Program-made: the position numbers and the translations under genes | Notes under the pieces: model-generated | What the model was told of the DNA's origin: nothing | The model's input: only the letters and a program-made list of their open reading frames with translations | Databases searched by the model: none | NCBI GenBank assembly: GCA_964016885.1 | Contig: OZ024741.1 | Location: 401,698,001-401,762,000, forward strand | DNA length: 64,000 nucleotides | Source of the DNA: Eledone cirrhosa | Lineage: Eukaryota | Reading direction: 5' to 3' | Part shown: positions 2,894 to 61,487 of the stretch, one piece after another | How the letters are laid out: the number at the start of each line of letters is the position of its first letter | Numbering within the stretch: the stretch's first letter is position 1

Positions 2894-3044
2894 AATACCA
2901 AGACAGTTCGGAATAATGGACCAGATGATATTATCAACATACCGTATGGTACCACTGTCAACAGTATAAAGTTAAAATTTTATACTGTTAAACCAGATTG
3001 TGAGATGTCTGTAACAGTATCAGTTATGGGATGTTTTGAATCAA
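2894..3044 (+). CDS. Exon B1 (NTKTVRNNGPDDIINIPYGTTVNSIKLKFYTVKPDCEMSVTVSVMGCFES)
   Basis: tttttacag|AATACC ... TCAA|gtaagt, 151 nt. Confidence 0.9.
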
Positions 3045-6000
3045 GTAAGTGTGATGGTATTTAACAAACATACTCTATACAAACAAACATTTCACTATAT
3101 TCATGATTCATGATATTTATTTATGAATAAAACAAAACAAAGTAATGTTTTTTCTTACCCAGTATATTTCAACATCATATTTCAGGGCTATCACCCTCTT
3201 TTTCAAATGTAAAAACAAAAAAAAAAAAAAAAAAAAAATGTTACAAAACAAGTAATGCACTTTTTCCCTGACTGGTCCATGTATCTGGATTACACATGCA
3301 TGAAGCAGTCACAGAAGCCACTCTGCTCTATATCATTCTAATCTATTGTTTATTTGTGGCTTCTGTGTGTTGATGATTAGAGCCTCCTTAATTCTTAAAT
3401 TCCCCACATACCTGTCCATTGCCTCTATGATAACCTCAATGTCTTGGTTGCAGCATTTGTGAATTTTACTATTTTAAATGAATTAAATATTTGTTATCAT
3501 ATCATTTATCTGAAACTAATTTTCTATATTAACTGCCTTTTAACTTTAATTTTAAAAAACTATTAAATTTAATTTGGTAGGAAAATCCTGCACCAAATTA
3601 ATATATAATTCTTTCTATGGAATCTAATTGTTATTTAATGCCTTCTCTCTAGAATCTACAACTGAAGCAGCAACAACAGCTACAGGTATGTGCTTTAACA
3701 TTTCAATAATTTCAATATAAACATCTTCTTCTTGAGTCATCACTCTTTCGAAGGTGAAGCATTTATTTTGCTTTTTCTAATGGCTAGAATATATGTGACT
3801 CACCACACCTGTATAAACATCCATGCCACTGATGTTGTCCAAGGGAAAAGCAATGACCGATACAGCTTGGCACCAGTGATGTGACAACAGATACTATATA
3901 TATATATATACTATAGACGTTAAATGATGATGATGATGATGACTCTATCATCAACATCATCCTCATCATCATTATCGCGACAATTATTATCATCATCATC
4001 ATCATCATTATTATTGGATTGGCAGTATTGGTAGAGGGTCGGACACCAAGCTTTGACGTATGGAGTTACGGCCCTTGCCATTCTGAGTTCAAATCCTGCT
4101 GAGGTTAACTTAGCCTTCCATCCTTACGGGGTTGATAAAATAAAGTACCAGTAATGTACTGAGTAATTGCTGGTCTTGTGCCAAAAAGTAAAAACAATAG
4201 GAGTTCAAGACCGGCTGCCCATGGGAACTCCTATACGCTGATGATCTAATGCTTATAGCTGAATCAATGGCTGAACTAGAGAAGAAATTCCAAACATGGA
4301 AGCATGGCCTAGAATCAAAAGGCCTTAAAATTAACCTGTCTAAGACTAAAGTTCTAGTTTGTAGGAAGGAAAATAGGGCACTGGTCCCATCTGGGAAATG
4401 GCCATGCTCAGTGTGTAGGAAAGGAGTAGGCAGAAACACCATTTTATGTCCCAAATGCAAAGTATGGGTGCATAAAAGATGTAGTGGGATCACAGGTAAG
4501 CTAACTAAGAATATAGATTTTATATGTGGCCGGTGCTCAGGTGCAATAAGTAGCAGCAAGTGCCCACAGAATACTAGCCCATTCCATTGCACAGATGGTT
4601 CTATAGAAATAGTGGACACCTTCCGTTACCTGGGTGACAAAATCAGCAGTGGTGGAGGGTGCTCGGAAAGTACAGCAGCTAGAGTCAGTACGGGATGGAA
4701 AAAGTTCAGAGAGCTTATACCACTATTGGCCGCTAAGGGTTTCTCTCTAAAAATGAAAGGCAGGCTGTATGATGCCTGCATACGAACAGCAATATTACAT
4801 GGAAGTGAGACCTGGGCATTGTGTGCAGACTGGAGAGAAACGAAGCTTGCATGCTCCGTTGGATGTGTAATAGTAATATACGTGAACGGCAAAGCATAAA
4901 TGAACTAAGTGAGAAATTAGGAATAAGAGGGATCAGATGCTATTTACTCGAGAGAAGACTACGTTGGTACGGTCACGTGATGCGCATGAAAGACGACAGC
5001 TGTATAAAAAAGTGCAGAGCGATAAAAATAGACGGTAGCCACAGAGTAGGCAGACCCAGAAAAACCTGGGATGACTTGATAAATTCCGACCTCACACACT
5101 TACACCTCTCCAAGACAATGTCACTGGACCGAGATCTTTGGCGCTACATAGTAATACAGAAGACCCGCCTTGCCTAAGTACAAAGTGAAACCTACAGTCA
5201 GTAGGCACCTCTTAATCAAATATGAACCCCCATCCCACTAACCCACTCCCACCACCCCTTTCAATGTAAAGTATGTTGGTACCACAACATCCAGTCCGAA
5301 ACAAATGAGGTCGTGTAGGTGTCACAACAAAAAAACACACAGTCCACGCTGTAATGTGGCTGTGTAGGTAACACGGTAAAAACCTCCCAGTCCCACACTG
5401 TAAATGTGGTTGGTGTTAGGAAGGGCATCCAGCTGTAGAAAACCCACCAGACAGTCCTATACGAGCAAGACGACCACTCTTGCCTCAAGTGGGACAATTC
5501 CCGTCTAAACCCATGCAAGCGTGGAAGATGGACTTTAAACAATGATGATGATGATGATCAATATTACCATCATCATGATCATCATCATTATCAACACCAT
5601 CATTATCAACATCATCACCATCCTCATCATCACCATCATCACTCATTAATGTTTCTATTCCATGTTGACAGTCAATAGAAATCTAAACAATATATGTTAT
5701 CTGTTATAAATAATATTTAACAAAAACCTTCAGATCATCATCATCATCATTAGATAGTGTTATAAAGTGGCTATCATGTGACGATTTCTGTGTATGTATT
5801 GGTAGGTATGTAAGTATATGTGTGTGTGTGTGTAGTAGAGGTGCAAATGAATTGCTTCCACAGGCAGTATGCCAAGATAAACACTCAATGCTCATATTTC
5901 CATTTATTATTATTATTATTATTATTATTTATATACATACATAGAGAAATATATATATAGATATAGATATAGATTAAATTTTTTGGCAGCATGACCCTCC

Positions 6001-9000
6001 TAAAGTATAACAATATATATATATACTAGCAGATTTACCCGGCGTTGCTCAGGGTTTGAAATTATGCTAAGAATATACAGCTAGGAAGTAAAAGAAGAAC
6101 ATTATTTGCACCCAACCTGTCAAAATAAGCAGAAGTCTTCAATAATTAATGCAAACGAATATTTAGTGCAATCTTTGTACACATAAAACTATGCTGATAA
6201 TGAAGGAAAACACTGAACAGGATGTAGTTATACAAATGATTAAAGACAATACACGTTGCAAATCTGTAAAAAAAACAGGCAGTTTTGCTAAAGTACAAAA
6301 AGTTGTAATGGAAGCAGAGTTGTATACAAACAAAAAAACAATGAGAGTAGAATAAGAGAAAATCTATTCTTTGAGAGCATCCTTTGCTGTGTATGGTTAA
6401 ATTTTGAACTTATAATCCAAAATATCCTGCATGACATATTCATTGGTATGTTTTGTAATGAGTAAGGTGAAGTCAAGGCAGAGCTGTAATAAGTTTTTTT
6501 GATAACACTAAAGCACTTCAGGATAGTTGATATTCTTTGTTTTTCTTTTCGGAACAAACGCAAAGAGATTATCTCGACTGCCAACTCGTGAGCAGGCAAC
6601 GTAGAATTGTCCGTGCGAAAAGCAAGGTTCATCCAAGTGAATTCCAGTGACGGACATAGTTTGACCTTGCGACTTGTTTATGGACATCGCAAAAGCAACA
6701 CGAAGGGGAAATTGGGTTCGGCGAAAGGAGAAGGGAGTATCCACACCTGATGTAGTCAGGCTAATTTTTGTTATTATCACATCCTCGCCTTTTCCACATC
6801 CGGATAGAATGGTAGCGTCAATACTAAATGGAGACAGTTTTTTAACCACAAGGCGTGTGACATTGCATAGTTTTGGAGGAGTGATATTTCTCAGCAAAAT
6901 AACTTTCAGAACCAATGTATTAGGAGGTAAACCAGGAGGATTTAAAGAATTCAGAAATTCAACTGGATAGTTGACCACATCCTGTGGATCACATACAGTA
7001 TCAATAGATTTATATATCCGTGGACATCCAGGAAGAATCCTGTTCAGTATGTTCCTTCATTGTCAAAAAAGTTTGATGTGTACAAATACAGCTGGGAGCA
7101 TAGATAATGCCTGCCTCAAATGTGGACGAAATTACCTTAAAAATGTAAAATCTGTAGGTTTCAATGTTTTTAATGGAAAGTCCCATAAGGATTGTTCTAA
7201 AATTAAACAAACCATCATCAAAATCATGTCAATTCGAGACTGCTGCGAGATTAGGCCCTTAACGCGAAAATTAACACTTAATATAGTGAAACAAGTTAAA
7301 ACAACAAGTGTTTTTTTTAACTTTGAAAGTGCAACAAAGAATAAACAAGAAACAAACAATAATATTAGTGATTTATCTTCAAATGAATTTGATGTTTATA
7401 TTTATTAAATTTCGTCTGACGATGATTGTTGTTTTACAATTGAAAACGAAGGTCTCCATATTACACTCTCTTTATAAGGATTGTCAATAAAGTTCGTTAT
7501 CTCCCTTTTTTTATAAGGATTGTCAATAAAGTTGGTTATCTCCCTTACATCAAATTTGATATCGATTTTTTATTGCTCAACGTGGGTTGATTGGAACCTA
7601 AGCAACCTGTGCAACGTGCACAGAAAATTTGGTCACATTCGGTTGGTAATTGTAAAAGCCATAGGTATCCAAAGTTGTACACAGACACACACACACATCC
7701 TCGCTTTTATATATATAAAGATATATATATGTGAAAAAATGGGGAGAAGAATATTGCAGGTTGCACATGGATAACATGTAATAAAATAAGTCCCTCATCA
7801 GTGATTTGCCGACGATCATAGATATTTCATTGCATTAAAAATCATATACCTCACGTCGGTGCAATAATAACTAAATTAAGTTATTAGGACAATTAAAACG
7901 CGTAAAGCGAGTGAGACAAGATAAGAACAAAGAGGAGAGCTAACCGTAGAAGGAAGGGAACAAGCTTCATAGTTATTCTGTTAGCATAAGCTAAGTGAAT
8001 ATATGAGCGCTTAGAAAAAAGACCTTTTGGGAACGAATTCAAATGTGAGAAAGAGAGAAAATGTTTTCGCCGCGAACGGGATGAAGTGAGAAGAGGAGAA
8101 ACAGTGAGTGAGTGAGTGGAAGTGTGAGGAAGAGTTAACTGACAAGACAGAGGGGGCGAAAGAAAGTAGGAGAAACAGAGAGAACGAGGGAGCAGTAAGA
8201 GAGAGAGAGAGAAAAAAAACAGAATCGCAGTTTAGGTAAATATAAGTGAAAAAATATATATATATATATTTGTGTGTGTGTGTGCATATAAAGTGTGAGA
8301 TGAAAATTTTACCTTTTATGTTGAGGCCTTATTAAATAGTTTTCTTTCTTTCTGTAAATACAGAGTCTTGGTGTGTGTTTAATGATGGTTTAGCTGATGC
8401 CTCATTGATAAGAAGTTGGGATATTAAGACTTCAAGTAATGAAGAATATGTCAATTCAATCAGACCTGGTGGAAAAGGATGGAAACCTGCTCTCAATGAT
8501 ACTAAACGTACAGTGAGAATTTTTGTAGGAGATTCTTTAAGATATGGTGGATCAATAAGATTACTCCATACTAAATATGTTGAGAAGTTTGATGTCATAC
8601 TCTCTGATGGACAGGTAAATTATATCTTTATTTAAAATGATAATTTTATTAATATAGTTAATACAAACATTGTGAGATATGTAATAAATGACTGATAGAT
8701 ATTTCAGAAAGTCAGTACAATGTGGCAGAAATATATAAAGGGTAAAGGATGGCAAATAAAATAAAACAAAGTAATGTTTATCTTACTCAGAATATTTCAA
8801 CATGATATTTCAGGGTTATAACCTCTTTTCAAATATAAAAACAAAAAACTGATCCAAGTATCTTGATTACACATGTAATAGAAGCCACTCTGCTCTGTCA
8901 TTCTAATCTATTATTTATTTGTGGCTTCGTTGTTGATGATTAGAGCCTCCTTAATTCTTAAATTCTCCACATACCTGTCCATTGCCTCTATGATTAACGC

Positions 9001-12000
9001 AATGTCTTGGTGCAACATTTGCGAATTTTATTATTTTAAATAAATTAAATATTTATTACATGGGCGGAGGTGGTGAGAGCAGACCTCAGATCGCTGAAGC
9101 TCACTGAGGACATGATGAAGGACCGTGACAAGTGGAGAGATGCTGTGCTGAATAGGACCCGTCCCTCCCTTACAAGCAGGGAAAAGCGGACGTAAAATGA
9201 TGATGATTTATCTGAAACTAAATATGTGTAGTATGAAAAAATATTTATAAATGTTAAATTACATTGCCTTATTCTGCACCTTACCTTTTTTTTCTATGTC
9301 ACGATATATGAGGGTCAGCAGAAAAGTTCAAAGACTGACCAAAATACTCTCATGGAATGACCAAATGAGGTTTATTTTTCAATGTAGTCCCTGGAAAGAA
9401 ATAATGTAGTTATTAATAAGAAGAGCTGAAATTAATGCAAGATTTCACAGCTCTAGCATCATGCCGTCATAGTCAGCCTCTGAACTTCCCAGCTGAACCA
9501 TGTACATCTAAAAATCTCTATGATCATTATTATAATCATCATCACCATCATCACAATGAGTTCTGAATTTGTTTTTCCATGTTTTCTCTCATGGCTTGGA
9601 TGAACTGCTTTGAGGAAACTTCTCTGGCTGCAAATGAAAAGGGAATAGTTGAAAGATATTAACTAAGAGAATACTGTATAAGGATTCAATAAGAAGGGGG
9701 GAGGAAGAGAGAGCAAGTGAAAGAGAGGAGAGACAGAGCGAAGAACAAGAGAGAGAGAGAGAGAGAGAGAGTCTAATAAAACAAAACAAGATTGAAAGAA
9801 AAAGTATAATTAAGTCACAGAGAAAAACAATCAGCACATGTGTGTGTGTGTGTGTGCACGTGTGTGTGTGCACGTGTGTGTGTGCATATCTGTATTGGGG
9901 ATATTTATGTATTAAAGAGTTCAAATAATTGTTTCTACTTTTGGCACAAGGCCAGCAAATTACCCAGTATGTTACTGGTACTTTATTTTATCGATCCCCA
10001 TAAGGATGAAAGGCAAAGTTAACCTTGGAGGGATTTGAACTCAGTATGTAAAGGGACTTAACTCTATGCTAGAAAGCATGGCGTTCGACCCTCTACCGAT
10101 ACTGCCAATCCACATAATTTAAAGGTGTTGGGAATGTTCTCAATGCTATACATATTTAAAATTCATAAAGATATAGTAAATGTAGAAAAATAGTGATTCA
10201 TTGTGAAATAATCAATCCAGATATTTTAACACCTTATTTAGGTAGAATTCAAAGTTGGTGAAAATCATCAAAATATTGACCCCAAATGTAAGCCAATCCC
10301 CCATTTTATGGGCGATTGTTTTTCGTAATATATTCCTCAGTTTATATTTGAGTATATATAGTGTTTCCTTAGTATATTGTTGGTGTGTTTTAATGTAAAT
10401 TTCTAAAATAGACAATGTTATCTAGGATCTGTCTTTTTTACAGAATACCAAGACAGTTCGGAATAATGGACCAGATGATATTATCAAAATACCTTTTGGT
10501 ACCACTGTCAATAGTATAACATTAAAATTTTATACTGTTAAATCAGATTGTCAGCTGTCTGTAACAGTATCAGTTATGGGATGTTTTGAATCAAGTAAGT
10601 GGGATTGTATTTAACAAACATACATTTCACTATATTTTACAAACAAACATTTCACTATATTCAACAAACATACATTTCACAATATTTAACAAACATACAT
10701 TTCACAATATTTAACAAACATACATTTCACAATATTTAACAAACATACATTTCACAATATTTAACAAACATACATTTCACAATATTTAACAAACATACAT
10801 TTCACAATATTTACAAACATGTCTGTAACAGTATCAGTTATGTGATGCTTTGAATCACGTAAGTATTATTGTTATTTTAAAATATACTTTTGAACATGCC
10901 ATTGTTATTTTAAAATATACTTTTGAACATGCCATTGTTATGTAGAATTAGAATTATAAAACTAATATTGTATACTACAGTGTAACCCATGTCAACAGGG
11001 AGAGCAGACATTTAGTTATGATGTTGTTATATACTAGTGAAGGTGCATAGCTTAGTGGTTAGAGAATTGGAGTCGCAATTGTGAGGTTGCAAGTTCAATT
11101 CCTAGTCTGGGGAAATGCGTTATGTTCTTAAACAATGCACTTTATTTCATGTTGCTCTCACCTCAGGTAGATAGTACCAATAGTTGGAAAGATCAATAGA
11201 AACATTGCTTCCTTAGTCTGATATGACAAGTTCCACCCCACTTGGTCAGCAAATGAAGTTTAGGATCTTGTTGATTGATTCCTTCAATATCTTGATCAAC
11301 CAGGAGTTGTGATTGGTAGATAATATTAGCAATGGAAACATTGTTTCCCCGGTCCAATTTGACGAGCTCCACCTCACCCCACTCAGTAAGCTAAGGAGGT
11401 CTGGGATCTTGTTGATCAATTCCTTCAAGTATCTTGATCTGCCAGGAGTTGTGACCAATAGATAGTGTCAGCAATGAAAAGACCAATGGAAGCATTGCTT
11501 CCTTGGTCTGATTATACAAGTTCAGGCCAAATGAATACTGGGTCAATCAAATTTAATATACTATAGATTGTTAAATCTTGTTTTAAAATATTGATAAATT
11601 ATACATGATATAATTGGTATAACTTGCAATAACATAATATATAGTTGTTTCTATGGGATCTTATTGTTGTTTAATGTCGTTTAATGTCTTCTTTCTAGAA
11701 TCTACAACTGAAGCAGCTACAACAGCTACAGGTATGGAGTTTACAAATTACACTAAACAGATTTCTCTCTTACATATTTATTGGTGATTGCAGAATAATA
11801 AAAACAGAATGTTTTCATGTTATATGCAAAGTACAAGACTTACGAAATACCTTTAGTTGATGACAGGATTAATAATATGTTGGAAATTGTCATTTCTTCT
11901 TCTTGGTTCCTTAACTCTTGATTGAATCGTAGGGGTGCCATAGCAACATACGGTGTTTCTTGGGCATTTTTAAAACCTGGCAGACCCCCATCTATCTCCA

Positions 12001-15000
12001 GGCCTGAGAACAGCAGATTTCTTCCAGAGAAGGATAAAAAGTGAGAAAGAGATATAGAGGAAGATTCGACCCTAGTACTAGACTGGTACTTTTTTATCAA
12101 CCTCCAAAGGATGAAAGGCAAAGTTGAATTCAGAGTGTATAGAGCTGATACAAAAGCCACAAAACACTTTATCCAACTTTCTAACGACTCTGTCATTTCT
12201 ACAGGACTAAATCAATATGGTTTTTTAGTCATCTAATTATAAGATCATGTGGTTGATTATTGCTTAATTACAAAAATCTTTTATTTTGTTTAATATCAAA
12301 TTATTAAATTCACTTTCCTTTTCTTTACCTCTGGCTTAAAATTGACTCACTTTGTTTTTACCATAAAAATAAGATGTTTAACCTATATACTTATATCATC
12401 ATCATAATTGTTTAAGGTCTATTTTTCCATGCTTGTAAGGGCTAGATGGGTTGTTGTGTTATAAGAAGAGTCAGGCCAGGGGACCACATTTTGCTCATAG
12501 GGATTTGTATGTTGGCTTGGTTTCAATGGCTGGATACTCTTCCTAAAACCAACCACTTCACATAAAAATTGTAAATCATAACGAAAGAAAATATTAAGTC
12601 AATACTAAGTAGCGTGTGTCAATTAGTCACAAGGGAGGCTCCAGCACACCTTGGGTACTGGAGCCTCCCTCAAATACTTTTTGAGGCAAGTTAACACACT
12701 GGCTGCATTACCACGGGTGGACTTATCTATAAGCTAAATAAGCTATAGTTTAGAGCCACCCACACAGAGGGGGGGGGGGCTCATTTTTTAATATATATTT
12801 TTATTTTATCATTAGTTTTTATTCTATAACACTAAATCATCAAATTATATATGATGGCGATGATGATGATGATAAATGTGATGCTGATGATTATGATGAT
12901 GGTGGTGATGATTATGAATATGATGATGATGATGGTGGTGATGATTATGAATATGATGATGTAGTGACCTTGTTAAATATATATTTTTCTTTCTGTAAAT
13001 ACAGAGTCTTGGTGTGTGTTTAATGATGGTTTAGCTGATGCCTCATTAATAAGAAGTTGGGATATTAAGACTTCAAGTAATGAAGAATATGTCAATTCAA
13101 TCAGACCTGGTGGAAAAGGATGGAAACCTGCTCTCAATGATACTAAACGTACAGTAAGAATTTTTGTAGGAGATTCTTTAAGATATGGTGGATCAATAAG
13201 GTTACTCCAGACTAAATATGTTGAGAAGTTTGATGTCATACTCTCTAATGGACAGGTAAATTATATCTTTATCTATAAAGTAATTTTTTATTATTTTTAT
13301 ACTAACATGGCATTGTTATTATTTAGTAAAAAATATTTGAGCAACGGTAGAAATGTAATATTAATGAATATGAAGGCCAAAGTACAAATGGACTGAAATG
13401 AATAATTAGTTATATAAAAGTATTTAGATGTAGTGTGCAACTAAGAAGGATGCATTGGTACAGACATGTGATGCACCTATAAAGAATTACAGCTGTATAA
13501 AGAAGTGAAGTAGAAATCTATAGAAACAGTAGAGAAAGACAAATCTGACATAAAACTGTTATATAAGACACAAGTATCTAAACTATAATAAAGTAAGGAG
13601 CGCGGGACTGTGTAAATGTTTATAATTTTTTATCCCATTAGTAAAATAAGTTGAATTACTTTGAATAAATATTGAATGAAAATTGCATAATTTATCTACT
13701 AAATTTCGTGACTGTTGATTAAATATATTTTATTGTTTATTTTAAGATTCACTTCTTTAAAATTTTCAAATGTCAACACTTCCGGTTAGCGATTGCTTAA
13801 ATAAATATTCATATATTTCCGTACACTAATTTTCTCCTAATGCAGTTTATATATAATATCGGTTTTTTTTTATGTATCATGGATTACGTTACTGATTACA
13901 TAAGACAGTGTAACACAGTCTTCATTCAATTTCCGTGTATATTGTCAATTACGATGTTATTTGATGTATCATATCTACATGTATATATACTTGCGTATAA
14001 TACCAATATGCACACTACACATGCTAGCAGAAAACCCACCCGAAGGGTGCTTTTTCTGATAATAAAAGTAAATGACTCAGCCATTTCACCACCTCCTTTT
14101 CTCTACTTTAAATAATTATCTAGTAAACCTTGTTTAAGAATTTGTTTAGTACATTGTTGATAGGTTTGAATGTAAATTTCTAAAATAGACATTGTTATCT
14201 AGGATGTGTCTTTTTACAGCATACCAAACATATTCGGAACAAAGGACCAGATGATATTATCAAAATACCTTTTGGTTCCACTGTCACCAATATAAAATTA
14301 AAATTTTATTCTGTTAGAACAGATTGTGAGATGTCTGTAACAGTATCAGTTATGGGATGTTTTGAATCAAGTAAGTGTGATTGTTATTTTTAAAACATAT
14401 ATTTCCATCTGGTATTGCTAAATACAATTATATTTTCAAACATACTTTACCAAACAATATATTGTTATTTCCAAATCATATTTATGAAAGCTGGTATTAC
14501 AAGGTTCGGCTAAAAATTTTGTTGGATGACCTAGCATCACTCCTTCATAACCAGATCATGAACTTTTCCATTGTTAAATTATTCTAGTTTAATTATAGCA
14601 GTAACAAAATATCTTGTAACAGTGTTCCGTATAAAGATTTATCATATTTGCTGGAGTATTAGAAGTATTTTGTTTTATGAAAAAAACATAAAAGATCTTC
14701 TCTGCATCCAATTCACCCGTATCACCGATGGGTGGCCGAATGGTGGGTAAGGGCAATCATTGTTAAAAAAGTTAGTTTGTATGACTATTAGTATTACCAA
14801 TACAGTAATACAATACAGTTTAGTTTATATTATTATTAGTATTACCAATACAGTAATACAACACAATTTAGTTACCAATACAGTAATACAGTTTAGTTAG
14901 TATTACCAATACAGTAATACAATTTAGTTAGTATTATTATTAGTATTACCAATACAGTAATACAATTTAGTTAGTATTACTATTAGTATCACCAATACAG

Positions 15001-18000
15001 TAATACACGACAGAGTCCCCCGCTCCATTATCTGGTGGGCTCTTAGAAAACTAGGCGTTGACGAATGGCTTGTGAGGGCTATACAAGCCATGTATAAAGA
15101 AACAGTCAGCAAGGTTAGAATTAACAACGAATATAGTGAAGAGTTTAGCGTAAAAGTCGGCGTCCATCAGGGCTCTGTTCTCAGTCCACTACTATTTATT
15201 ATTGCCCTTCAGGCCATAACAGAGGAGTTCAAGACAGGCTGCCCATGGGAACTCCTATACGCAGACGACCTGACACTCATAGCGGAATCAATGGCCGAGC
15301 TAGAGAAGAAATTCCAAACATGGAAGCACGGCCTAGAGTCAAAAGGACTTAAAATTAACCTGGCTAAGACCAAAGTACTAGTTTGTAGGAAAGAAAACAA
15401 GGCGGCGGTCCCTTCTGGGAAATGGTCGTGCTCGGTGTGTAGGAAAGGCGTAGGTAGAAACTCCATTTTATGTCCTAAATGCAAAGTATGGGTGCATAAA
15501 AGATGTAGTGGGATCACAGGTAGGCTAACTAAGAACATAGATTTTACATGTGGCCGGTGCTCTGGTGCAATAAGTAGCAGCAAGTGCCCACAAACTACTA
15601 GCTCTTTCAATTGCGCAGAGGGTTCTATAGAAATAGTGGACAGCTTCCGTTACCTGGGCGATAAAATCAGCAGTGGGGGAGGGTGCTCTGAAAGTACTGT
15701 AGCTAGAGTCAGAACTGGTTGGAAAAAGTTCAGAGAGCTTATACCACTATTAGCTGCTAAAGGGTTCTCACTAAAAATGAAAGGCAGGTTGTACGATGCC
15801 TGCATACGAACAGCAATGCTGCATGGCAGTGAGACCTGGGCATTGTGTGCAGAGGATATACGCAGACTAGAGAGGAACGAAGCTTGCATGCTCCGCTGGA
15901 TGTGTAACAGTAATATACGTGAACGGCAAAGCATAAACGAACTAAGGAATAAATTAGAGATAAGAGGGATCAGATGTTGTTTACTCGAGAGAAGGCTACG
16001 TTGGTATGGACACGTGATGCGCATGAAAGTCGATAGCTGTATAACAAAGTGCAGGGCAATAAAGATAGACGGTAGTCACGGAATAGGCAGACCTAGAAAA
16101 ACCTGGGACGAGCTGATAAACTCCGACATCACACACTTACACCTCTCCAAGACAATGTCACTGGACCGAGACCTTTGGCGGTACTCAGTAACAGAGAAGA
16201 CCCGCCTTACCTAAATATATAGTAAAACCTACTCCAGCCAGTAGGCATCTCTAACAAATACACCCCGTCCCACCACCCCCACCCGATCCACACCACCCCG
16301 TTCTATGTAAAGTTATGTTGGTGCCGCGCCATCGAGGCCGAAACAAATGAGATCGTGTAGGTGTCACGACAAAAAAACACACAGTCCACGCTGTAATGTG
16401 GCCGTGTAGGCAACACGGTAAAAACCTCCCAGACCCACACTGTAAATGTGGTTGGTGTTAGGAAGGGCATCCAACTGTAGAAAACCTGCCAGACAGTCCT
16501 ATGCGAGCAAGACAATCACTCTTGCCTCAAGTGGGACTACCCCCGTCCAAACCCATGCAAGCGTGGAACACGGACGTTAAACGCTGATGATGATGATGAT
16601 GATGATTAGTATCACCAATACAGTAATACAGTTTAGTTAGTATTACTATTAGTATCACCAATACAGTAATACAATTTAGTTAGTATTACTATTAGTATCA
16701 CCAATACAGTAATACAGTTTAGTTAGTATTACTATTAGTCAATTCCTTAATTCTATCGTATTCTCAAACAAAACAAAATCCTTCCCATTCTACTTCTTAT
16801 AAATTCCTTTAAATATATATATTATGCTACTTCGAAAGTCAAAAATCCCGCTTCTACACCCAAGCACCCAGGCACCCTTCACCCTCCATCTACTTCACGA
16901 GGGACTGCGGTCAGCCACTCTCTCTCTCCCCCTTCACCTCTCTCTCTCTCTTAGCTACATATATATATATATAAGATAAATTCCCCTTCATGTTTATTCA
17001 CTTTTCGCCAATTCATTGCTGCTTCAATTATTCCTACTACGGTGTACCCATGTAATCGTAACGTACACAATTTTCTATCTACTCCACGCTTCAATTTCGT
17101 ACCTAGTCCAAACATCCAATCTCGCAAAATCCGAAATCTGTATTTTTTGTTATTTATTTATGTTTAAATACGGTTGTTTTTGTCGTATTGAACAGAACAA
17201 ATCTTGCAGTTTTGCTTTTTGTTAATCGCTTGTTAAACATTCATAACCTTCCAGCTAGCTACTCCACACCCCTCCCACCCGCCCCCACACACCACCATTC
17301 TTAATACGTGGACCAATCGTAAGCCAGAGCCCCCCCCCCCCCCTGCATCACCATTATTATTATTACGCGGACCAATCATAAGCCAGAGGCCTATACTATC
17401 GCTTGCCCGGTTGCCTTCGATATATGATGGATGGATGGATGGACTGCGGAATCCTGGAGAGTGGAAGGGAGAGAAAAATCTGGACGCTCAGAGCGAAAAT
17501 GCCAAAGTTAAAGTCAAATTCACCTCGTGGACGAGAATGCGAGCATTCCTCTTTGTTTCGGCCGCGGATGGCTAACATAACCCCATCTCTCCCCGCGCCC
17601 CACCGCCCCCACCCTCCAAACGCAATCCAAAACTTCAGAGTTGGTACCATAAATGTAGGCACCCTAAAGGGTCGCGCTAACGAGGTTGTAGAAATGCTTG
17701 AACGTAAGGAGGTCGATGTTTGTTGTATTCAAGAGACCAGGTGGAGGGGTGGGTCTGCTAGATTCATTGAGGGTAAAAAACGATGTTATAAGCTTTTCTG
17801 GGTGGGAAACGACGATGGGCTGGGTGGAGTAGGAATCATGGTAGCAGAAAAGTGGGCAGATAAGATAATAGACGTAAATAGAGTGAACGACAGAATAATT
17901 AAAATACGACTTGTCCTCAATAGAACTACGGTGACAGTAATATCTGCGTACGCACCCCAATCCGGACTGCCCGGCACTATAAAAGACAGATTCTATGAGA

Positions 18001-33000: not shown

Positions 33001-36000
33001 CACACACACACACATAGGTGTGGGCTGTCACACACACACACACACATAGGTGTGGGCTGTCACACACACACACACACATAGGTGTGGGCTGTCACACACA
33101 CACACACATAGGTGTGGGCTGTCACACACACACACACACATAGGTGTGGGCTGTCACACACACACACACATAGGTGTGGGCTGTCACACACACAGACACA
33201 TAGGTGTGGGTTGTCACACACACACACACATAGGTGTGGGCTGTCACACACACACACACATAGGTGTGGGCTGTCACACACACACACACATAGGTGTGGG
33301 CTGTCACACACACACACATAGGTGTGGGCTGTCACACACACACACACATAGGTGTGAGCTGTCACACACACACACACATAGGTGTGGGCTGTCACACACA
33401 CACACATAGGTGTGAGCTGTCACACACACACACACACATAGGTGTGGGCTGTCACACACACACACATAGGTGTGGGCTGTCACACACACACACACACATA
33501 GGTGTGAGCTGTCACACACACACACATAGGTGTCGGCTGTCACACACACACACACATAGGTGTGGGCTGTCACACACACACACACACATAGGTGTGGGCT
33601 GTCACACACACACACATAGGTGTGGGCTGTCACACACACACACACATAGGTGTGGGCTGTCACACACACACACACATAGGTGTGAGCTGTCACACACACA
33701 CACATAGGTGTGAGCTGTCACACACACACACACACATAGGTGTGAGCTGTCACACACACACACACACATAGGTGTGGGCTGTCACACACACACACACATA
33801 GGTGTGGGCTGTCACACACACACACATAGGTGTGAGCTGTCACACACACACACATAGGTGTGAGCTGTCACACACACACATAGGTGTGGGCTGTCACACA
33901 CACACACACACATAGGTGTGGGCTGTCACACACACACATAGGTGTGGGCTGTCACACACACACACACACATAGGTGTGGGCTGTCACACACAACACCCAC
34001 ATAGGTGTGGGCTGTCACACACACACACACATAGGTGTGGGCTGTCACACACACACATAGGTGTGGGATGTCACACACACACACACACATAGGTGTGGGC
34101 TGTCACACACACACACATAGGTGTGGGCTGTCACACACACACACACACATAGGTGTGGGCTGTCACACACACACACACACATAGGTGTGAGCTGTCACAC
34201 ACACACACATAGGTGTGGGCTGTCACACACACACATAGGTGTGGGCTGTTACACACACACACACATAGGTGTGGGCTGTCACACACACACACACATAGGT
34301 GTGGGCTGTCACACACACACACACATAGGTGTGGGCTGTCACACACACACACACATAGGTGTGGGCTGTCACACACACACACACATAGGTGTGGGCTGTC
34401 ACACACACACACACATAGGTGTGGGCTGTCACACACACACACACATAGGTGTGGGCTGTCACACACACACACACATAGGTGTGGGCTGTCACACACACAC
34501 ACACACACATAGGTGTGGGCTGTCACACACACACACACATAGGTGTGGGCTGTCACACACACACACACATAGGTGTGGGCTGTCACACACACACACACAT
34601 AGGTGTGGGCTGTCACACACACACACATAGGTGTGGGCTGTCACACACACACACACACATAGGTGTGGGCTGTCACACACACACACACACATAGGTGTGA
34701 GCTGTCACACACACACACACACATAGGTGTGGGCTGTCACACACACACACACACATAGGTGTGGGCTGTCACACACACACACACATAGGTGTGGGCTGTC
34801 ACACACACACACACATAGGTGTGGGCTGTCACACACACACACATAGGTGTGGGCTGTCACACACACACACACACACATAGGTGTGGGCTGTCACACACAC
34901 ACACACACACATAGGTGTGGGCTGTCACACACACACACACACACACATAGGTGTGGGCTGTCACACACACACACACACACATAGGTGTGGGCTGACACAT
35001 ATAGGTGTGGGCTGTCACACACACACACACATAGGTGTGGGCTGTCACACACACACACACATAGGTGTGGGCTGTCACACACACACACACATAGGTGTGG
35101 GCTGTCACACACACACACACATAGGTGTGGGCTGTCACACACACACACACATAGGTGTGGGCTGTCACACACACACACACATAGGTGTGGGCTGTCACAC
35201 ACACACACACATAGGTGTGGGCTGTCACACACACACACACATAGGTGTGGGCTGTCACACACACACACACATAGGTGTGGGCTGTCACACACACACACAC
35301 ACACATAGGTGTGGGCTGTCACACACACACACACATAGGTGTGGGCTGTCACACACACACACACATAGGTGTGGGCTGTCACACACACACACATAGGTGT
35401 GGGCTGTCACACACACACACACACATAGGTGTGGGCTGTCACACACACACACACACATAGGTGTGAGCTGTCACACACACACACACACATAGGTGTGGGC
35501 TGTCACACACACACACACACATAGGTGTGGGCTGTCACACACACACACACATAGGTGTGGGCTGTCACACACACACACATAGGTGTGGGCTGTCACACAC
35601 ACACACACACACATAGGTGTGGGCTGTCACACACACACACACACACATAGGTGTGGGCTGTCACACACACACACACACACATAGGTGTGGGCTGACACAT
35701 ATAGGTGTGGGCTGTCACACACACACACACATAGGTGTGGGCTGTCACACACACACACACATAGGTGTGGGCTGTCACACACAACACCCACCATAATTAC
35801 ATAAAACTGTTTAGTGTTTCATTTATATAGTGGTGTATTGTGAAGTAAATTTCTAAAATAGAAAATATGGTGACAAAAAACACCCAGTCCACTCTGTAAA
35901 CTGGTCATGTTGGTGACATAATAAAAATCACCCAGTTCACCCTGTAAATGTAGTTGGCTTTAGGAAAGGCATTCAGCCATAGAAACAGTTCTGTGTGAGC

Positions 36001-48000: not shown

Positions 48001-51000
48001 GTATCCGAACAGCAATGTTGCATGGTAGTGAGACCTGGGCGCTGAAGGTGGAAGACTTACGTAGATTAGAGAGAAACGAATCCTGCATGCTCCGATGGAT
48101 GTGTAACAGTAATATACGTGAACGACAAAGCATAAATGAATTGAGAGAGAGACTGAGCATAAGAGGAATCAAATGTCGTGTGCAGGAGAGGCGGTTGCGC
48201 TTTTAGCAGTATTAGTTATAGATGTTATCGCCACTTTAACAGGGTGGTAGAATCAGTGGTCGTTAGTTGCCAGTGTGGTAAGTGATAGTATCCTCGTTGG
48301 ATTATCTTGTTGACATAGACGTGAGGGAAGGTCCCTCAATCTATTTACCATCTATTTACAATATTCCTTTCGTCAGGTCGCCAATTCCAGCAGCATGGAT
48401 TAAAGATGTCTTTGAGATACAAGTGACATAATAACAGCAGTAATTAGAGATGAAATGTTTGTTTATTTATATGGTTGAAGTTACAGATACAAAGAGGTTA
48501 CAAAAATGGAATGTGCCATTGCGCCGTTAAGCCGGCGAGGCTAGTGGTGCAATATCTCACTGTTACATTATGCGTGTTGCTGGCTCGAAGTTTCTGGTAC
48601 AAGCTAGAGATTCTTCAAATCTTCGCGGGGAATTTCTTCCTCAGGGCGCGTAGGGATACATCCTCTTCTACTGGCGCTGATTGGCTGAACTGAGCCAAAT
48701 CACGCACAGAGAATGTATGTGAGCCCGCGGAATGTAGGTCACTACATCACCTCCAACCAGATTTTCAGCCGAAAATCGATAACGAAGAAACGAAAGACTC
48801 ACATATTAAATCAGCAAGAACAAATGCTGAAAGAGCACATCAGTGAAAAAATAATTGAGCAGAAGGTTGCATGCAAGAACAAAAAATGAGGCGCTACGGG
48901 CCGTGTTGAGCCGCTGTGTCAAATGACCAGTTGTTTTGTTGTTTATACGTGACCGCCAAAGGTCTAACAAAAAACGGATAAAGTCTGACATGGGCGAGGT
49001 TGCTGTTCTTGCATTAAATGTTAATGGTAAGCGTTGTACCAGTAGCTGTGAACGAAGCTATTATGGTAGTTTACCAGTGCTGGCGAGAAAATGATGGCCC
49101 CCAGATGTATTGTCGGATGTGCTGTGGAGCCAGGAAAAAATGGCTGGTTGCTTTGTAAAGAACAAAAGGCAAGTTTAATCTGTAGGTGGGTTGCAGTGTA
49201 AATTCCATAATTCGGGCGAATCCACAGAAGTGGCCGAAATGCTAACAAGTCCAGTTCCATTTGTTGCTTTCCCAGCGAGTCGGGCAAAAACAACAAGACG
49301 GATGGCCGTCATGGACGAACAGTGTGCAACGAGATGCGAAGCTGTTCGAGTTCAGCTGCAATGTATTCTCGTGTTGCGGTGCCTGTTTGAATCCAGTGGA
49401 TTAAGCTCTGTGAGCTGCTAGCATGTGACAGCATCTCAACCAGGTGAAAAGGGACTCGCAGAATATTACGTTTGAAGAACATATACCAAGAACAACATGT
49501 TGGTGTGTGATAAAAAAAATGTGTGCTTATGCAGGCATGTAAAACAGCAAAGAATGTGAATGAACAAAAACCATGAGCAAGCAAATAGCAAAAGAGCACA
49601 AAACAAGTAAATGCATTCTACAAAGAAATATGTGAATGTAACAAACTGATAATTCAAAGTCAATCTAGGGGAGCAGAGAAATTGCTCAATAAGTTCAAAG
49701 TTTTTCAAAGTCAAATAGTTCACACATCACCAGTGTACAGACACTAGTTCTATCTGAAAACTGAAAAAGAAGTTTGTTAATGCTGTTAGGGGTTAGATGT
49801 ATGGTGTTTTTGTGAGATTTCGTGGCCATTTTCCCGTCCCGCCACACGGTTGTGTTGCTTATTGTTAAAGCAAAGTCAAAGAATCTTCTGTAGAGTAGGA
49901 GTCACCAAATATGGCAGTCACGTCTGACGCCATAAAGGTGAGAAACTACTGTCTCAATTTCTCGCGTCCCTGTGGTAACGAGACAGAAGGTATGGTGGTT
50001 GCGTCGGTAAAGTTACAAGCCGTTTTGAAATTTCCGATGTGTGGTGGTTGGCGTCGGTAAGGTTATGAAGCTGCCACTCACTGTTCCCTGTATTGGTCAG
50101 TGGTTAAACAACGCTGTCGCTGCTGCTGTCATTGTTGTTGTCAAGCGTAGCCATGACATGTCGGTAGCCATCTTGAAATTTTTTCGGGGCGAAAAAGTTT
50201 TTGAAATACTGCTAATTTTTCAAAAATCTTAAAAGGAATATTCTGGATTTTCGCAAGTTGCGACGTGGCAATAAAAGTTAAACTGAATGAATAAGAAGGG
50301 CTGCGTGACATTCTTACGTCGGTCACCACTTTAGCAGTATTAGTTATAGATGTTATCGCCACTTTAGCAGGGTGGTAGAATCAGTGGTCGTTAGTTGCCA
50401 GTGTGGTAAGTGATAGTATCCTCGTTGGATTATCTTGTTGACATAGACGTGAGGGAAGGTCCCTCAATCTATTTACAATATTCCTTTCGTCAGGTCGCCA
50501 ATTCCAGCAGCATGGATTAAAGATGTCTTTGAGATGCAAGTGACATAATAACAGCAGTAATTAGAGATGAAATGTTTGTTTATTTATATGGTTGAAGTTA
50601 CAGATACAAAGAGGTTACAAAAATGGAATGTGCCATTGCGCCGTTAAGCCGGCGAGGCTAGTGGTGCAATATCTCACTGTTACATTATGCGTGTTGCTGG
50701 CTCGAAGTTTCTGGTACAAGCTAGAGATTCTTCAAATCTTCGCGGGGAATTTCTTCCTCAGGGCGCGTAGGGATACATCCTCTTCTACTGGCGCTGATTG
50801 GCTGAACTGAGCCAAATCACGCACAGAGAATGTATGTGAGCCCGCGGAATGTAGGTCACTACACGCTGGTATGGACATGTGATGCGTATGAAGGATGACA
50901 GCTGCATAAAAAGGTGCAGAGCACTAGAAGTTGATGGAAAACGCGGAGTGGGGAGACCCAAGATGACCTGGGATGAGGTGATAAAAGCCGACTTTACCCA

Positions 51001-54000: not shown

Positions 54001-57000
54001 CAGAGTCTTGGTGTGTGTTTATTGATGGTTTAGCTGATGCCTCATTAATAAGAAGTTCGGATATTAAGACTTCAAGTAATGAAGAACATGTCAATTCAAT
54101 CAGACCTGGTGGAAAAGGATGGAAACCTGCTCTCAATGATACTAAACGTACTGTAAGAATTTTTGTAGGAGATTCTTTAAGATATGGTGGATCAATAAGG
54201 TTACTCCATACTAAATATGTTGAGAAGTTTGATGTTATACTCTCCGATGGACAGGTAAATTATATCTATATTAAATAGTATAATATAATTGTTTCTACTT
54301 TAGGCACAAGGCCAGCAGTTACCCAGTACATTACTGGTACTTTATTTTATCGACCTCGTAAGGATGAAAGGCAAAGTTAACCTCGGCGGAATTTGAACTC
54401 AGACTGTAAAGGCACGTAACTATGCTAGAAAGCATGGCGTCCAACCCTCTCATCATCATCACTCGTCGACTACTGTCGAGATGATGGATCTCACTCTCAT
54501 GCCCCAGAATCCCCTGTTCCCCATCGCTGCCCCCAGGTCCTGTCTGCTGATTCCCGTATCCCTAGAGATAACGTCAGGGAATGACAGCTTCCTACTCCTA
54601 GTCAGGCTGGAGTCAGGGTTCCAGAACAAGAGAGTGGATATGATTTCATTGCTGGCACGGTGACAGTGGCCAGCAAATTGAGCTCTCCGGGATTTTAGAA
54701 GGGCAGAGGCTCGAGGGAGTTTGCCATAGATTTTAGACAAGGTGGGATGTCGTTTCCAGGATAGGTTTTGCACTCTCATTAAGAGGCGGGTATATGTGCC
54801 ATCCAATCTCCTCTCAAGTTGTGATGTTAGTGTCCAAGTTTCGGATCCATAAAGTAATATGGGCTTAATGGTTACTTGCAATATTTCCAGTTTTAGCTTG
54901 TTGGTAAGTTGAGATGTCCATATGGCGTGCATGTCATTGCACGCTGACCATGCCATACCCTTCCTGGTTAGAAAATCTTTTTTGGAGGAGGAGATATATG
55001 AGCCAAGATACTTGTAATCTTCTACCTGCTTAACGGTGGTACCATTAAGGGTTCTGATGGGGTAGTTTGGGCTGTTTGCGCATCTGTTCACACACTCAGT
55101 CTTGGATTCGTTGAGGTACAGTCCAACATAGTTGGACGCTTGCTCTAATGACTTCAAAAGACTCTCAGCATTTTCCAGTGACCGACTGATCAATGCGATG
55201 TCGTCAGCAAAGTCGGTGTCGGTCAAGTATTTTGCTGGGTAGCGTGAGCTTCTCCTAGGCTGTAGTTGATATCCCCTATCCTGAATCCTATCCACAGACA
55301 TGCGCAAAACATAATCCACAACAATGATAAATAGATACGGAGCAAGGGTATCGCCCTGTAAAATTCCAGCAAGGATTGAGAAAGGTGGTGTTTCCCCATC
55401 TGGGGTCAGGACAGTTGATTTGGTATCTGTATACATTGCACGTATGGCCGCGATTATTTTATCAGGAATCCCATAGAGTTGTAGAATTTCAAACATCCCC
55501 GACCTGTCAACTGAGTCGAAGGCTTTTGAAAAATCAACAAAGATGAGTGCAAGGTCTAGATTGCGGTTTTGGGACTCCTCTATAAGTCGGCAAAGGCAGA
55601 GAATCTGGCTAAGTGTTGATCTACCTCTCCTAAATCCATTCTGGTTGTTACGAAGGATTGGCTCAAGAAATGGGATTAAGCGGTTAAGAAGAAGCTTGTT
55701 GTATATTTTTGCAGCAATTGCCATGAGAGAAATTCCTCTATAGTTGGTGGCTAAAGAAAGATCTCCTTTTTTGGGCATGGGGATAATTTGAGCTGCATGC
55801 CAGACACTAGGAAGTTTATTGGTCTCGAAAGTATGGTTACACAAGTTGAGCAAAAGGATGTGGAAATGCTCATCCTTCCAAATCAGGGTAGGTATATTAT
55901 CCGGCCCAAAGGCTTTTGAGGCTTTTAGCTGTTTGATGGCTTCTTTGAGCTCAGGCATGGTGAAAGGAGAGGTGTTGATTCCTAAAGGCTCTGAAACCTG
56001 AACGGATGGCAGTTGATAGTTATCAGGGAGTCTGGCCTTTTTCCCTAGAAGGTTTTTAAAATGAGCAGACCAATTTTCAAGACGTTTTTTGGCAGAGCCT
56101 CCCTTGATTCTAACTGCAGAGTTTGAGTTTTTGCCTGAAAGATCTTTGACAACCTTCCAAGCAAGATGATGGTGTTTGCTGATGTAATGTTGCGATAGCT
56201 GATCAATCCTACCTGAGATATAGTCGGCTTCAGCATTAAGATAAGCGTCGTCTAGTGATTCCTTGGCCATGATAAGCTGTATCTTTTGCCCTTGAGATGG
56301 TGATTGATGGTGAGATTGGGATATTGACCTAAGATGGGCCCTTGCCTCAACTACCTTCTCTGAGGCACTAGGTTTCATTTGGCTTCGGCTTTTCTTTTTA
56401 GGTAGGGTGGCAAGTGCAACTTCCTCTGTTGATTGCTTAAGACAGTCATACACATCCTCAATATTATCGTCACTGATGTCAGAAGTTGAGAGAGATTGAA
56501 ATCTGTTATAGACTTGAAGCGTGAAGCTATTGGATAGTTGTTTGTTGGAAGAAACGGCTTTCCAGTCTATTCTTTTCATGGGATGAGGTTCAGCCCTCTT
56601 GGATATCCTGAGGCTAAGATTGATTGTTGCCAAGATGACTCGATGATCTGAGCCAACAGAGCTAAAGGAGGAATAAGATCTAGAATCTTTGATTGAGTTT
56701 CTCCATTTCTTGCGAAATATCAAATAGTCAATCTGAGCTCGTTTTTGGTTTGGGTATTCGAAGGTCCAAAGCCGGCCTATGGTCTTCATGAAGCTGTTGT
56801 TTGAGCTGAATAGACTGAATTCTTCCATGAAGTCCTTGAGATATTCCCCGTTTCGGTTAGTAACCCTATCGTATGTGAACTTTACTTCATCCGGGCCAAG
56901 TTGAGCGTTGAGGTCTCCAGCGATGATAAGAAAGTTGTGTAAGGGTACTTGCTCAACAATTGTGCGAAGGGTCGTGTAGAATTCTCTTACCTCATCCTCA

Positions 57001-60000
57001 GGAGAGGCGTTATGAGGACTGTATACACATATCTCAGTGGTTCTAGGATTGCCCTCTAGTGTAAGCACCAAGATTCTGGGAGAGATTATTTCAATCCCCA
57101 GAAGATTATTGCTGGTTTTAGATGAGAGAAGGCAGCCGACTCCTCCGACGGAGGCATTGACAGGGTTCTTGGTGGCTGAAGAGGTGACAAGTGGGTAGGA
57201 TCCTAGGGTGTGATACTTGAGATCATCCTTTGGGTGGAAAAAGCAGTGTTCTTGGACCGCAAGGATGTCAATGTTCTGAAGTTTGGCATTCTCTGCCAGC
57301 TCCTGGAGTCTACCTGTTGGAAGGAGGGTTCTGGTGTTCAAGGAGCTAACTATTATTTGCTTTTTACAGCTAACTAAGCAAGATTTGCTTGTTGTTTGGT
57401 TAGGACCTGTTTCTTCTCCATCAGATGAACCCCGCCCCTTGAGATTTGAGGATTCATCATCATTCGATGCCTTTGTAGGTGCATTATGATCAGAAACAGG
57501 ACCTGGGAAAGCAGGGGCTGGACCTATATCAACAGGTATACCATATAGTGTGGTTCCCTGAGGAACAGGAACCCTGGTGCAGTTAGTTGTGAAATCCATC
57601 ATCTTTTCAAATAGCTAATAATGTGTGTGGGCACCACTACTACACACACATGTGAAAGAATTTGACAGCCAAGTCTTGAAGAAGGTGCTTTCTCCTCTGT
57701 GTGGTGGGTTACCCGGCACCAGATACCAACCTGGTATTTATACCCTCACCCTAATTGTTCGTGTTGCAAGCACTAGAGTAGTTGCTAACCAAAGCTACGG
57801 ACCCACTCTATCCGTCTGGAGATACGTTGTACTAGCTTACCAGCATACTAGTAGCAGGCAGTTGACTTTTCCGGCACTGCAGCGCCTTTCGGCGGGCCGT
57901 GCTGGTTTTGGATGGCCATTGACTCCAAGAGCTCTTAAGAGCTCCCAGGAGTTCCTTTGACAGGTTTTATTTTTAGTCCTGCAGGATGTCCAAAGTCACC
58001 CTCCTCACCAAGAAACCTTGGTGGGATTGCCAGTTTAGTCGCCAACGACCCGACCATGAGACAGATTGTACTGGGATACATGTTACCAGTAGCACCAACT
58101 GGTGACCTGACCATGACCAACCTGACCTGACCAACCCTCTACCGATACTGCCAATTCAAAAGATTGTTCAAATGTATTCATTGAATCATTATAAATATAT
58201 TTATTATATTGATACACAGGGGCAGTGGATTAACAGTATTGGCAGAGCATTGAACGAAATGCTTTGCCTTATTTGGGTATGAATTTCTATGTTCCGAGTT
58301 CTATACTCTATTAACACTGCTAGAGAACAAGACCAAAATACTGCAAACCTTTTTGTCCTAACTTATATTAACTCTGTAGGAGACCAACACCAAATGCTGC
58401 AGGCTCTTTTGACCTAAACCATATTAACTCTGCCAATCTGTTGCCATACAAATTTTCAGTTGAAAATGTCAGAACTTGAAGATGTTTTATATCTTTCAAA
58501 TAAACTAAAGCATGTAATAGTAAGGTTTTAATTTATAACTATGTGGTGAAGGTTAATATATACTGTGTGTGTATCATCATCATCATTTTATGTCCGCTTT
58601 TCCCTGCTTGCAAGGGTGGGATGAGTCCTATTCAGCACAGCATCTCTCCACTTGTCACGGTCCTTCGTCATCTCCTCCGTGAGCTTCAGCGATCTGAGGT
58701 CTGCTCTCACCACCTCCGCCCATGTTTTTCGCGGTCTTCCTCTACTGCGTCTTCCTTCTACTGGGATTTCTTGGCACTTCTTTACCCAGGCAGTCATCCT
58801 CCATGCACATCACATGTCCATACCATCTCAGCCTTCTCTCTCGCACAACACAACTATCCCTCTTAAACACAGTTTCTCTCTCAACTCATCTATGCTTGGT
58901 CGTTCACGCACATTGACATTGCACATCCAACAGCATGCTTGCTTCATTTCTCTCCAGCCGTTGCAAATCCTCTGCAGTTGCTGCCCATGTCTCACTACCA
59001 TGCAGCATCGCATACCTCACACAGGCATCATATAACTGGCCTTTCGTGCGCAGGGAGAAACCCTTCTTTGTCAACAGAGGAAGCAGCTCTCTAAACTTCT
59101 TCCAACCCGTCCTTATTCTAGATACTATGACTTCGGAACACCCTCTCCCATATATATATATATTGTATATATGTGTGTGTATGATGGAGACAACAGTCCA
59201 GTATCTTAACATTAAAGCTATTATAATCCCTGTATTGGCAGCTTTTCTTTTTGTTTCTTGTCACCTGAGAGGTTAGCTATAGACATGTCATTAGAATGCG
59301 TCAGGAAAGAATCACTGGACAGATTTTACAAGCCAAAAACCAACTGGCAGGAGACCTAGAGGTAGATCTTGAGCAAGATGGTTGGATAACATCCATGAAC
59401 TTGGCTAGTTCAGTTGGGAATTCAGCTGGATCAGCTGGGGGTGGCTGCTTCTGACAGGACCCACTGGAAGGAGAGTTTGAGGACTCTTCCCCCACGGCTC
59501 TCTCAGGAATAACTGGGTGAAGAAGGAGAAGTAGAAGAAGAAGCTTTGGAGAAAAAATTCAATGCTCATGGCCTCCATGGTTCTTCTGCAACCAAAGATA
59601 TTTATGCCATTAATGTTCTGTTTTAAACTGCTCTAATTCCACTCCTTTTGGATCAGAGGGCTGATACTCTGATTAGGAAGGACTGGATATAGTAGTTATT
59701 GTGGGGTCTTGAAGGGTGAGGAGAGTGGAGATGAGGGAGTTGAGAGTGCCTGAATGGAGGTGGAATAAAACTAGAAAGTTCCAAGGAGTTATCCAATAAC
59801 TAAATATATTTAATTCTCTCATATCAATTAATATTTCTCTTGAAAATATTAATTTTAATGTTTCTTCAATATATCATTTTTTATTTATTTATTTATTTAT
59901 TTATTTACTCAATTTAAATGTCCGTATAGAGTCAGTGGTTCCCTACCTTTTGTGCCCCATGCCCCACCTCAACATCTCATGATCATCAGCTTGACCAGTG

Positions 60001-61487: not shown

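Follow-up and report, generated by a model that had tools for sequence, protein, structure and literature searches.

In lophotrochozoans, mucin-like proteins are characterised by F5_F8 domains, and SCO-spondins are the closest kin of some invertebrate mucins, according to the accessible part of Lang et al. 2016 (PMC4948705). The same text describes Drosophila hemolectin, where three VWD-C8-TIL units are followed by F5_F8 domains and two further VWD-C8-TIL units complete a 3+2 plan. The vertebrate mucins MUC2, MUC5AC and MUC5B carry a D1-D3 head, CysD beads between PTS linkers and a cystine-knot tail (PMC7599080, in the part available). Among lophotrochozoans, the mucin-2-like protein of the ribbon worm Lineus longissimus (XP_064639835.1, 4,464 aa) includes three VWD domains, C8, LDLa, Thr-rich linkers and 13 short discoidin domains (beads hereafter). 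The mucin-2-like protein of the chiton Liolophura (XP_064614628.1) has 7 beads, as does its relative in Tubulanus. The octopus locus described here probably encodes a protein of this known kind, with the same three VWD-C8-TIL units, LDLa, beads of the same family and Thr-rich linkers; its copy number of 47 beads is extreme. LDLa lies between beads in Lineus and not here.

The stretch analysed is 64,000 nucleotides long (the window: G000:C2:401,698,001-401,762,000, + strand, within the 3.0-Gb genome of Eledone cirrhosa; signed positions refer to this window). It contains 25 exons, found where the initial annotation had placed them, in strict B-C-A order (BCA eight times and a last B): nine B exons of 151 nt, eight C exons of 33 nt and eight A exons of 251 nt, each bounded by AG and GT (Table 1). 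Their in-silico splice is 3,631 nt long and reads through 1,210 codons with 0 stops, in agreement with the open frame of about 1210 aa proposed earlier, and corresponds to eight whole domains and one leading half. The copies had been called near-identical, which is appropriate for exon A (mean 97% nucleotide identity) and less so for exon B (87%). The window linkers are composed of 50% Thr and 30% Ala. A chance origin of the exons was rejected, the identity of the copies being too high (blast E values of 1e-113 to 1e-124 for the exon A copies of the window), as was a transposon origin.

Table 1. Features of the window and of the gene model around it
Feature	Start	End	Strand	Remark
Whole window, inside gene	1	64000	+	head ~window -414 to -182 kb; array -179.5 to +69 kb; tail +73 to +181 kb
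Exon B	2894	3044	+	C-terminal half of discoidin-like domain; partner A upstream of window
Exon C	3653	3685	+	11-codon Thr/Ala linker
Exon A	8364	8614	+	N-terminal half of domain
Exon B	10444	10594	+	
Partial duplicate of exon B 3' end	10819	10864	+	in-frame stop; pseudo-exon fragment outside splice
Exon C	11699	11731	+	
Exon A	13005	13255	+	
Exon B	14220	14370	+	
Exon C	20766	20798	+	
Exon A	23097	23347	+	
Exon B	25043	25193	+	
Exon C	25788	25820	+	
Exon A	29581	29831	+	
Exon B	30070	30220	+	
Exon C	30585	30617	+	
Exon A	31618	31868	+	
Exon B	36151	36301	+	
Exon C	37384	37416	+	
Exon A	37605	37855	+	
Exon B	38309	38459	+	
Exon C	41623	41655	+	
Exon A	44196	44446	+	
Exon B	45938	46088	+	
Exon C	53121	53153	+	
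Exon A	54004	54254	+	
Exon B	61337	61487	+	

The description of the surrounding span as mostly transposon DNA also stands. At least 57% of the non-exon DNA between 2894 and 61487 recurs elsewhere (a lower bound, measured against 864 kb). Of seven long window ORFs tested, five carry RVT_1 (LINE-type reverse transcriptase), one an endonuclease only and one nothing. Short repeats of three families are dispersed through the window, as seen by self-comparison. Long LINE ORFs with endonuclease and reverse transcriptase occupy introns at 54459-57614 (minus strand), 46411-48045 and 17382-19986, one of them reaching 1,051 codons. Two 30-bp minisatellites also lie in introns (window 53-2516, 82 copies; 32919-35787, 95 copies), the first of which yields long stop-free frames. 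Another broken partial copy of exon B is located in an intron near window -105,561 (L010).

The window exons are the 3' part of a 47-copy discoidin-fold array. The initial count of at least 8.5 domains is exact for the window and an undercount for the array, which continues beyond the window for ~180 kb on its upstream and 8 kb on its downstream side. Profile searches over 664 kb identified 47 A exons across ~250 kb (window -179,476 to +68,041) and 46 intact B exons, one A lacking its B beside a 200-N gap. This orphan A and its linker, which flank the gap, were left out of the array splice; the remaining 166 of 168 exons (window -168,033 to +69,072) join into 7,509 codons with 0 stops. The beads fall into three subfamilies, to which a divergent first and a divergent last bead are added. 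Upstream beads have two linker exons (57 and 45 nt; 52% Thr, 18% Pro), one upstream linker exon being enlarged into a 286-aa PTS exon of QPTTT type (56% Thr, 23% Pro). The S/T-rich linkers anticipated in the initial annotation are Thr-rich in both parts of the array, and every linker exon has phase 1-1.

With one B missing at the assembly gap, and identities of 98-99.7% between several of the upstream units, the number of copies may be inaccurate. Unitigs of exon A reach a depth of 61-69 against 3.5-9.4 for those of the adjoining introns (three DNA runs, one sample), which fits several real copies; these runs are possibly the assembly's own and give no independent support. The window units have unrelated introns and therefore cannot be haplotype duplicates, a possibility that was rejected.

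The position of the intron within the bead has shifted: A exons measure 266-269 nt and B exons 136 nt in the upstream cassettes, with 251 and 151 nt in the window (compared at window 8364-8614 and 10444-10594 against L014:8197-8460 and 8785-8919). The donor of the window type lies 15 nt earlier and its acceptor 18 nt earlier than in the upstream type, and O. bimaculoides is of the window type. Beads of this family also form another array, 6 Mb away on C2 (G000:C2:395,775,816-395,818,653; L068-L072). It comprises 33 units with a period of 1,329 bp, 99% identical including their introns. Each unit has two exons, one for the first half of the bead and one in which the second half is fused to a Thr-rich linker. 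TSP1- and knot-like exons lie 35-45 kb downstream of this second array, and no VWD was found in the 75 kb upstream.

The initial annotation had proposed a discoidin (FA58C) fold, and AlphaFold2, Foldseek, VIA and HHalign agree with it. The AlphaFold2 model, computed for one bead of O. bimaculoides (87% identical in exon A to the window bead) from an alignment of window and locus exons, is all-beta, with a pLDDT of 92 and a pTM of 0.87. Its top Foldseek matches are neuropilin b1/b2, factor VIII C2, DDR2 and CBM32. VIA scores reach Z 13.8 against CBM32 (rmsd 2.3, 115 aligned residues) and Z 12.9 against neuropilin and DDR1. Overall, the structural matches span Z 12-14 and rmsd 2.3-3.8 over 113-130 aligned residues, as for an eight-stranded discoidin barrel. 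HHalign of a profile of 86 beads against nine FA58C domains (SCO-spondins and a hemichordate) gives an end-to-end alignment (93%, E 4e-8, 126 columns) in which C3, G8, I20, R33, W39 and C130 are kept. The bead therefore includes both cysteines of the terminal pair, the first and the last, as had been predicted, together with the FA58C end motifs (GM..I..SS..R...W and ..GC).

Sequence searches see little of this likeness. Pfam PF00754 matches none of five exons, none of the beads of the ortholog P0001 and nothing at the locus in a genome scan, and the bead profile, searched against solved structures, gave six chance matches (best E 0.35). Clusters of F5/8 type C in the ESM Atlas score 0.87-0.88, short of 0.9, and are a lead only. 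Taken together, the models support a predicted discoidin/F5-8C barrel with shortened loops. Compared with canonical FA58C, HHalign places five gaps in the bead, mostly in loops, which make it ~28 residues shorter. These gaps would remove the ligand-binding spikes of the discoidin fold.

This bears on the role of a multivalent lectin suggested in the initial annotation. As such a lectin, or as a clotting protein comparable to insect hemolectin, the protein could recognise a microbial or wound-exposed glycan or lipid through each bead, with avidity provided by 47 copies. The fold is shared with CBM32, discoidin I/II and factor VIII C2, homogenised beads would suit one repeated ligand, and hemolectin too combines three VWD-C8-TIL units with F5_F8 domains (PMC4948705, as far as the accessible text goes). 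However, likeness of fold alone says nothing on function, the loops are trimmed as described and the second VWD pair of the 3+2 plan was not found in the tail. The array is also far longer than that of hemolectin. We consider this reading unlikely: nothing in the sequence comparisons favours lectin activity, which is not supported for a bead of this reduced length.

Extending both flanks for other domains, as the initial annotation had recommended, was productive on either side. Upstream of the array and on the same strand, the head begins with an EGF-like exon (-414 kb), followed by VWD1 (-402 and -338 kb) with C8/TIL, VWD2 (-312 to -217 kb) with C8/TIL, VWD3 (-200 kb) with C8/TIL and one LDLa exon (-182 kb). 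An unnamed 679-aa fragment, P0017, maps collinearly onto it (678 of 679 aa, 77%). Downstream, again on the same strand, the tail is composed of TSP1, TIL, VWC and an 11-Cys cystine knot. The O. bimaculoides tail maps collinearly between window +68 and +181 kb (727 of 826 residues, 73%). The 11-Cys stretch forms the last exon and scores just below the Pfam Cys_knot cut-off of 24 bits (23.6 bits, E 6.5e-5). The locus therefore exhibits the three N-terminal VWD-C8-TIL units of gel-forming mucins, their PTS region in the form of Thr-rich linkers, and their C-terminal cystine knot. A genome scan that scores best candidates only found no fourth VWD unit in the tail; this unit (D4) would distinguish MUC2, MUC5AC and MUC5B from the present protein and is absent from MUC6 and MUC19. 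The signal peptide was not located in the one stretch examined, near window -426 kb, nor was the first exon. A membrane anchor was rejected, the ortholog terminating in a cystine knot.

The single-copy parts contain very long introns, of ~93 kb in the head (window -312 to -219 kb) and ~64 kb in the tail (L022-L029, window +80,046 to +143,958). VWD genes are clustered at the same end of C2 (396.71, 396.85, 399.93-399.96 and 401.50 Mb), and G000:C2:396.7-401.5 Mb is likely a cluster of mucin-like genes.

Since no second head or tail was seen inside the array, and since head and tail, on the same strand, are collinear with orthologous fragments, the array likely forms the middle of one gene of ~600 kb, whose continuous mRNA would encode ~10,000 aa. 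The array could be real without corresponding to one giant chain, if units are skipped, if several genes share the array, or if young units were over-counted by the assembly. Linker exons that are all phase 1-1 make the units skippable in frame, O. bimaculoides models vary by whole units (4, 6 or 7 beads), a 13.2-kb block that extends across the window start shares 98.6% identity with the adjacent one and the array includes the 200-N gap. We judge such a composite origin quite unlikely: 166 exons follow each other without stop, frameshift or broken splice site, the array lacks internal heads and tails, and the unrelated introns of the window units argue against haplotype duplicates.

Related sequences come from other octopods. 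Among 41 candidates, a search with exon A retrieved one protein, O. bimaculoides A0A0L8GSU4 (87% identical), which exhibits five beads and a terminal bead, then TSP1 (four stretches), TIL, VWC and a final Cys-rich domain. Its junctions are those of the in-silico splice. Together with A0A0L8GSE0 and A0A0L8GSM8 it represents the ortholog of the 3' end, with the same 145-aa cassette, terminal bead and tail; unlike the Eledone gene, these entries are uncharacterized fragments of 1,245-1,679 aa with 4-7 beads and without a head. A search of 1.84 billion proteins with the bead profile gave 74 matches at E <= 0.001. Besides the ribbon worm and chiton mucin-2-like proteins, named matches include Glandiceps (a canonical F5/8C) and uncharacterized proteins of O. 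vulgaris, O. sinensis and O. bimaculoides. Two DUF5018 proteins were treated as false positives. Pfam F5_F8_type_C matches three of 21 relatives tested, one above cut-off.

As the mucin-2-like proteins of ribbon worm and chiton carry 13 and 7 copies, neither the domain nor the architecture is lineage-specific. The suggestion of an orphan protein has to be abandoned, all the more since an O. bimaculoides fragment is already annotated. The literature searched on the accessions of these relatives contained no paper naming the O. bimaculoides proteins, and that on FA58C mucins in cephalopods, mollusc discoidin/VWD mucins and octopus SCO-spondin held no description of such an array. In skin mucus, 'SCO-spondin' proteins are listed without accessions in the part of PMC11431876 available. 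Among the rows listed of the O. vulgaris skin-mucus PSM table (PMC10138644 supplement), three accessions and 12 short peptide motifs returned 0 rows, although O. vulgaris peptides may differ.

The other part of the initial proposal, an extracellular mucin-like protein, is supported by the head with three VWD-C8-TIL units and the TSP1/TIL/VWC/cystine-knot tail, as in SCO-spondin-like invertebrate mucins. Vertebrate SCO-spondin exhibits the same domains in the same order (three VWD, LDLa, FA58C, TSP1, TIL, VWC and cystine knot). It has one or two canonical FA58C domains and long arrays of about 10 LDLa and 26 TSP1, whereas the octopus gene has 47 trimmed FA58C domains, PTS linkers, four TSP1 stretches and a single LDLa exon found. 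Alternatively, the protein could be orthologous to SCO-spondin in the strict sense and form an extracellular fibre, neural or sensory, instead of mucus. Its plan, the best long matches of its tail (SCO-spondins), the name SCO-spondin carried by an O. vulgaris member of the cluster and the affinity of some invertebrate mucins for SCO-spondins noted by Lang et al. (PMC4948705, same part) point in that direction. We regard this as highly improbable given the short TSP1 and LDLa complement, the linkers with 50% Thr and the presence in O. bimaculoides of a closer SCO-spondin-like paralog with six LDLa (P0108). The gene probably encodes a secreted octopus scaffold of mucus or matrix, ~10,000 residues long and resembling both gel-forming mucins and SCO-spondins.

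Such a chain would be secreted, with O-glycosylated linkers, and could form tail-to-tail dimers through its 11-Cys cystine knot. The beads would act mainly as stiff spacers offering weak multivalent contacts in a mucus or matrix gel rather than as classical lectins. They would be comparable to the CysD domains between the PTS stretches of vertebrate mucins, although they are discoidin barrels.

The cysteines of the head and of the beads suggest how chains may or may not be joined. In MUC2, C1088 of D3 forms an inter-chain disulfide, and MUC19 also lacks an equivalent (PMC6739602, in the part available). At the aligned site (GGDC; numbering offset from the accessible part of PMC7599080) the octopus protein has Gly, while the six relatives listed have Cys. 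MUC2-like, canonical head-to-head polymerisation is therefore doubtful in the octopus protein, judging from this residue. The third Cys reported for each domain is indeed present in every window bead. Across 45 spliced beads, 22 have three cysteines and 23 have four; in the latter, a bond between the third and the fourth (position 71) within the bead is possible. Roughly half of the beads possess an odd cysteine, which could provide added side links. The third Cys is missing at that position from 42 outside beads, a further difference from the lophotrochozoan relatives.

A broader reading would join these elements. A lophotrochozoan-wide trimmed discoidin bead, invisible to Pfam, would do the job of the vertebrate CysD, and in this octopus mucin lateral links, made by free cysteines in roughly half of the 47 beads, would have replaced the head-to-head D3 disulfides. 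The resulting gel would be of a ladder type with no counterpart among described mucin polymers, and exon-limited gene conversion would keep its beads uniform. As a whole, this combination appears rather unlikely.

The array exhibits repeats of different ages. Upstream units are 98-99.7% identical over kilobases, introns included, and are young whole-cassette duplications. A 13.2-kb tandem duplication also spans the window start (window 53-13272, L019-L020); it contains two cassettes and the 30-bp satellite. In the window, exon A copies differ at 3-9 positions per 251 nt (pS 0.058), 27 of 32 four-fold sites being invariant. Beyond 30-60 nt, the flanks of exon A fall to the identity of shuffled sequence, and the A-B introns (238-7,082 nt) have little in common except mobile elements. 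Between the three subfamilies, pS reaches 0.49-0.64 with a dN/dS of 0.17-0.29, a pattern of purifying selection on the beads. For the A halves of inner beads, likeness is 96% among the copies of one species and 83% when Eledone is compared with O. bimaculoides, while the terminal bead has a one-to-one ortholog (tree support 100/100). In the bead tree (36 distinct own beads and 7 ortholog beads, with identical duplicates and the divergent first bead left out), 35 own inner beads form a clade with support 94/93, just under the starred mark; those of O. bimaculoides branch as an open polytomy.

Exon-limited gene conversion is likely the best explanation of alike A exons amid diverged introns. The history would begin with tandem duplication of whole cassettes, conversion then keeping old exons alike after their introns had diverged beyond recognition. 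Selection at the nucleotide level, on splicing enhancers, RNA structure or codon use, could instead have maintained the likeness. The identity reaches only ~20-30 nt into the introns, where splice signals lie, and GC3 is not raised in the homogenised exons (0.20, compared with 0.28 for single-copy exons), so that the signal of GC-biased conversion was not found. This alternative is very unlikely: synonymous sites diverge freely between subfamilies, shared variants form a mosaic across the copies (of 15 informative site pairs in exon A, 10 are incompatible) and the shared residue set differs species by species. Concerted evolution and conversion in duplicated exons are well known, there including introns (PMC2720389, in the part available), and the array is therefore a clear case rather than a new process.

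The array displays both stages of repeat evolution, young cassette duplication upstream and old exon-only homogenisation in the window. Its 251-nt exon is far more uniform than its 151-nt exon, a natural test of the homology needed by gene conversion. The model presented here is a near-complete one for a ~600-kb cephalopod mucin-like gene, of which public annotation holds unnamed fragments only. It defines a short discoidin subfamily of octopods, chitons and ribbon worms that is missed by Pfam. Should the protein prove to be a scaffold of mucus or of an adhesive, its beads with their odd cysteine would lend themselves to tests as a module that cross-links invertebrate gels.
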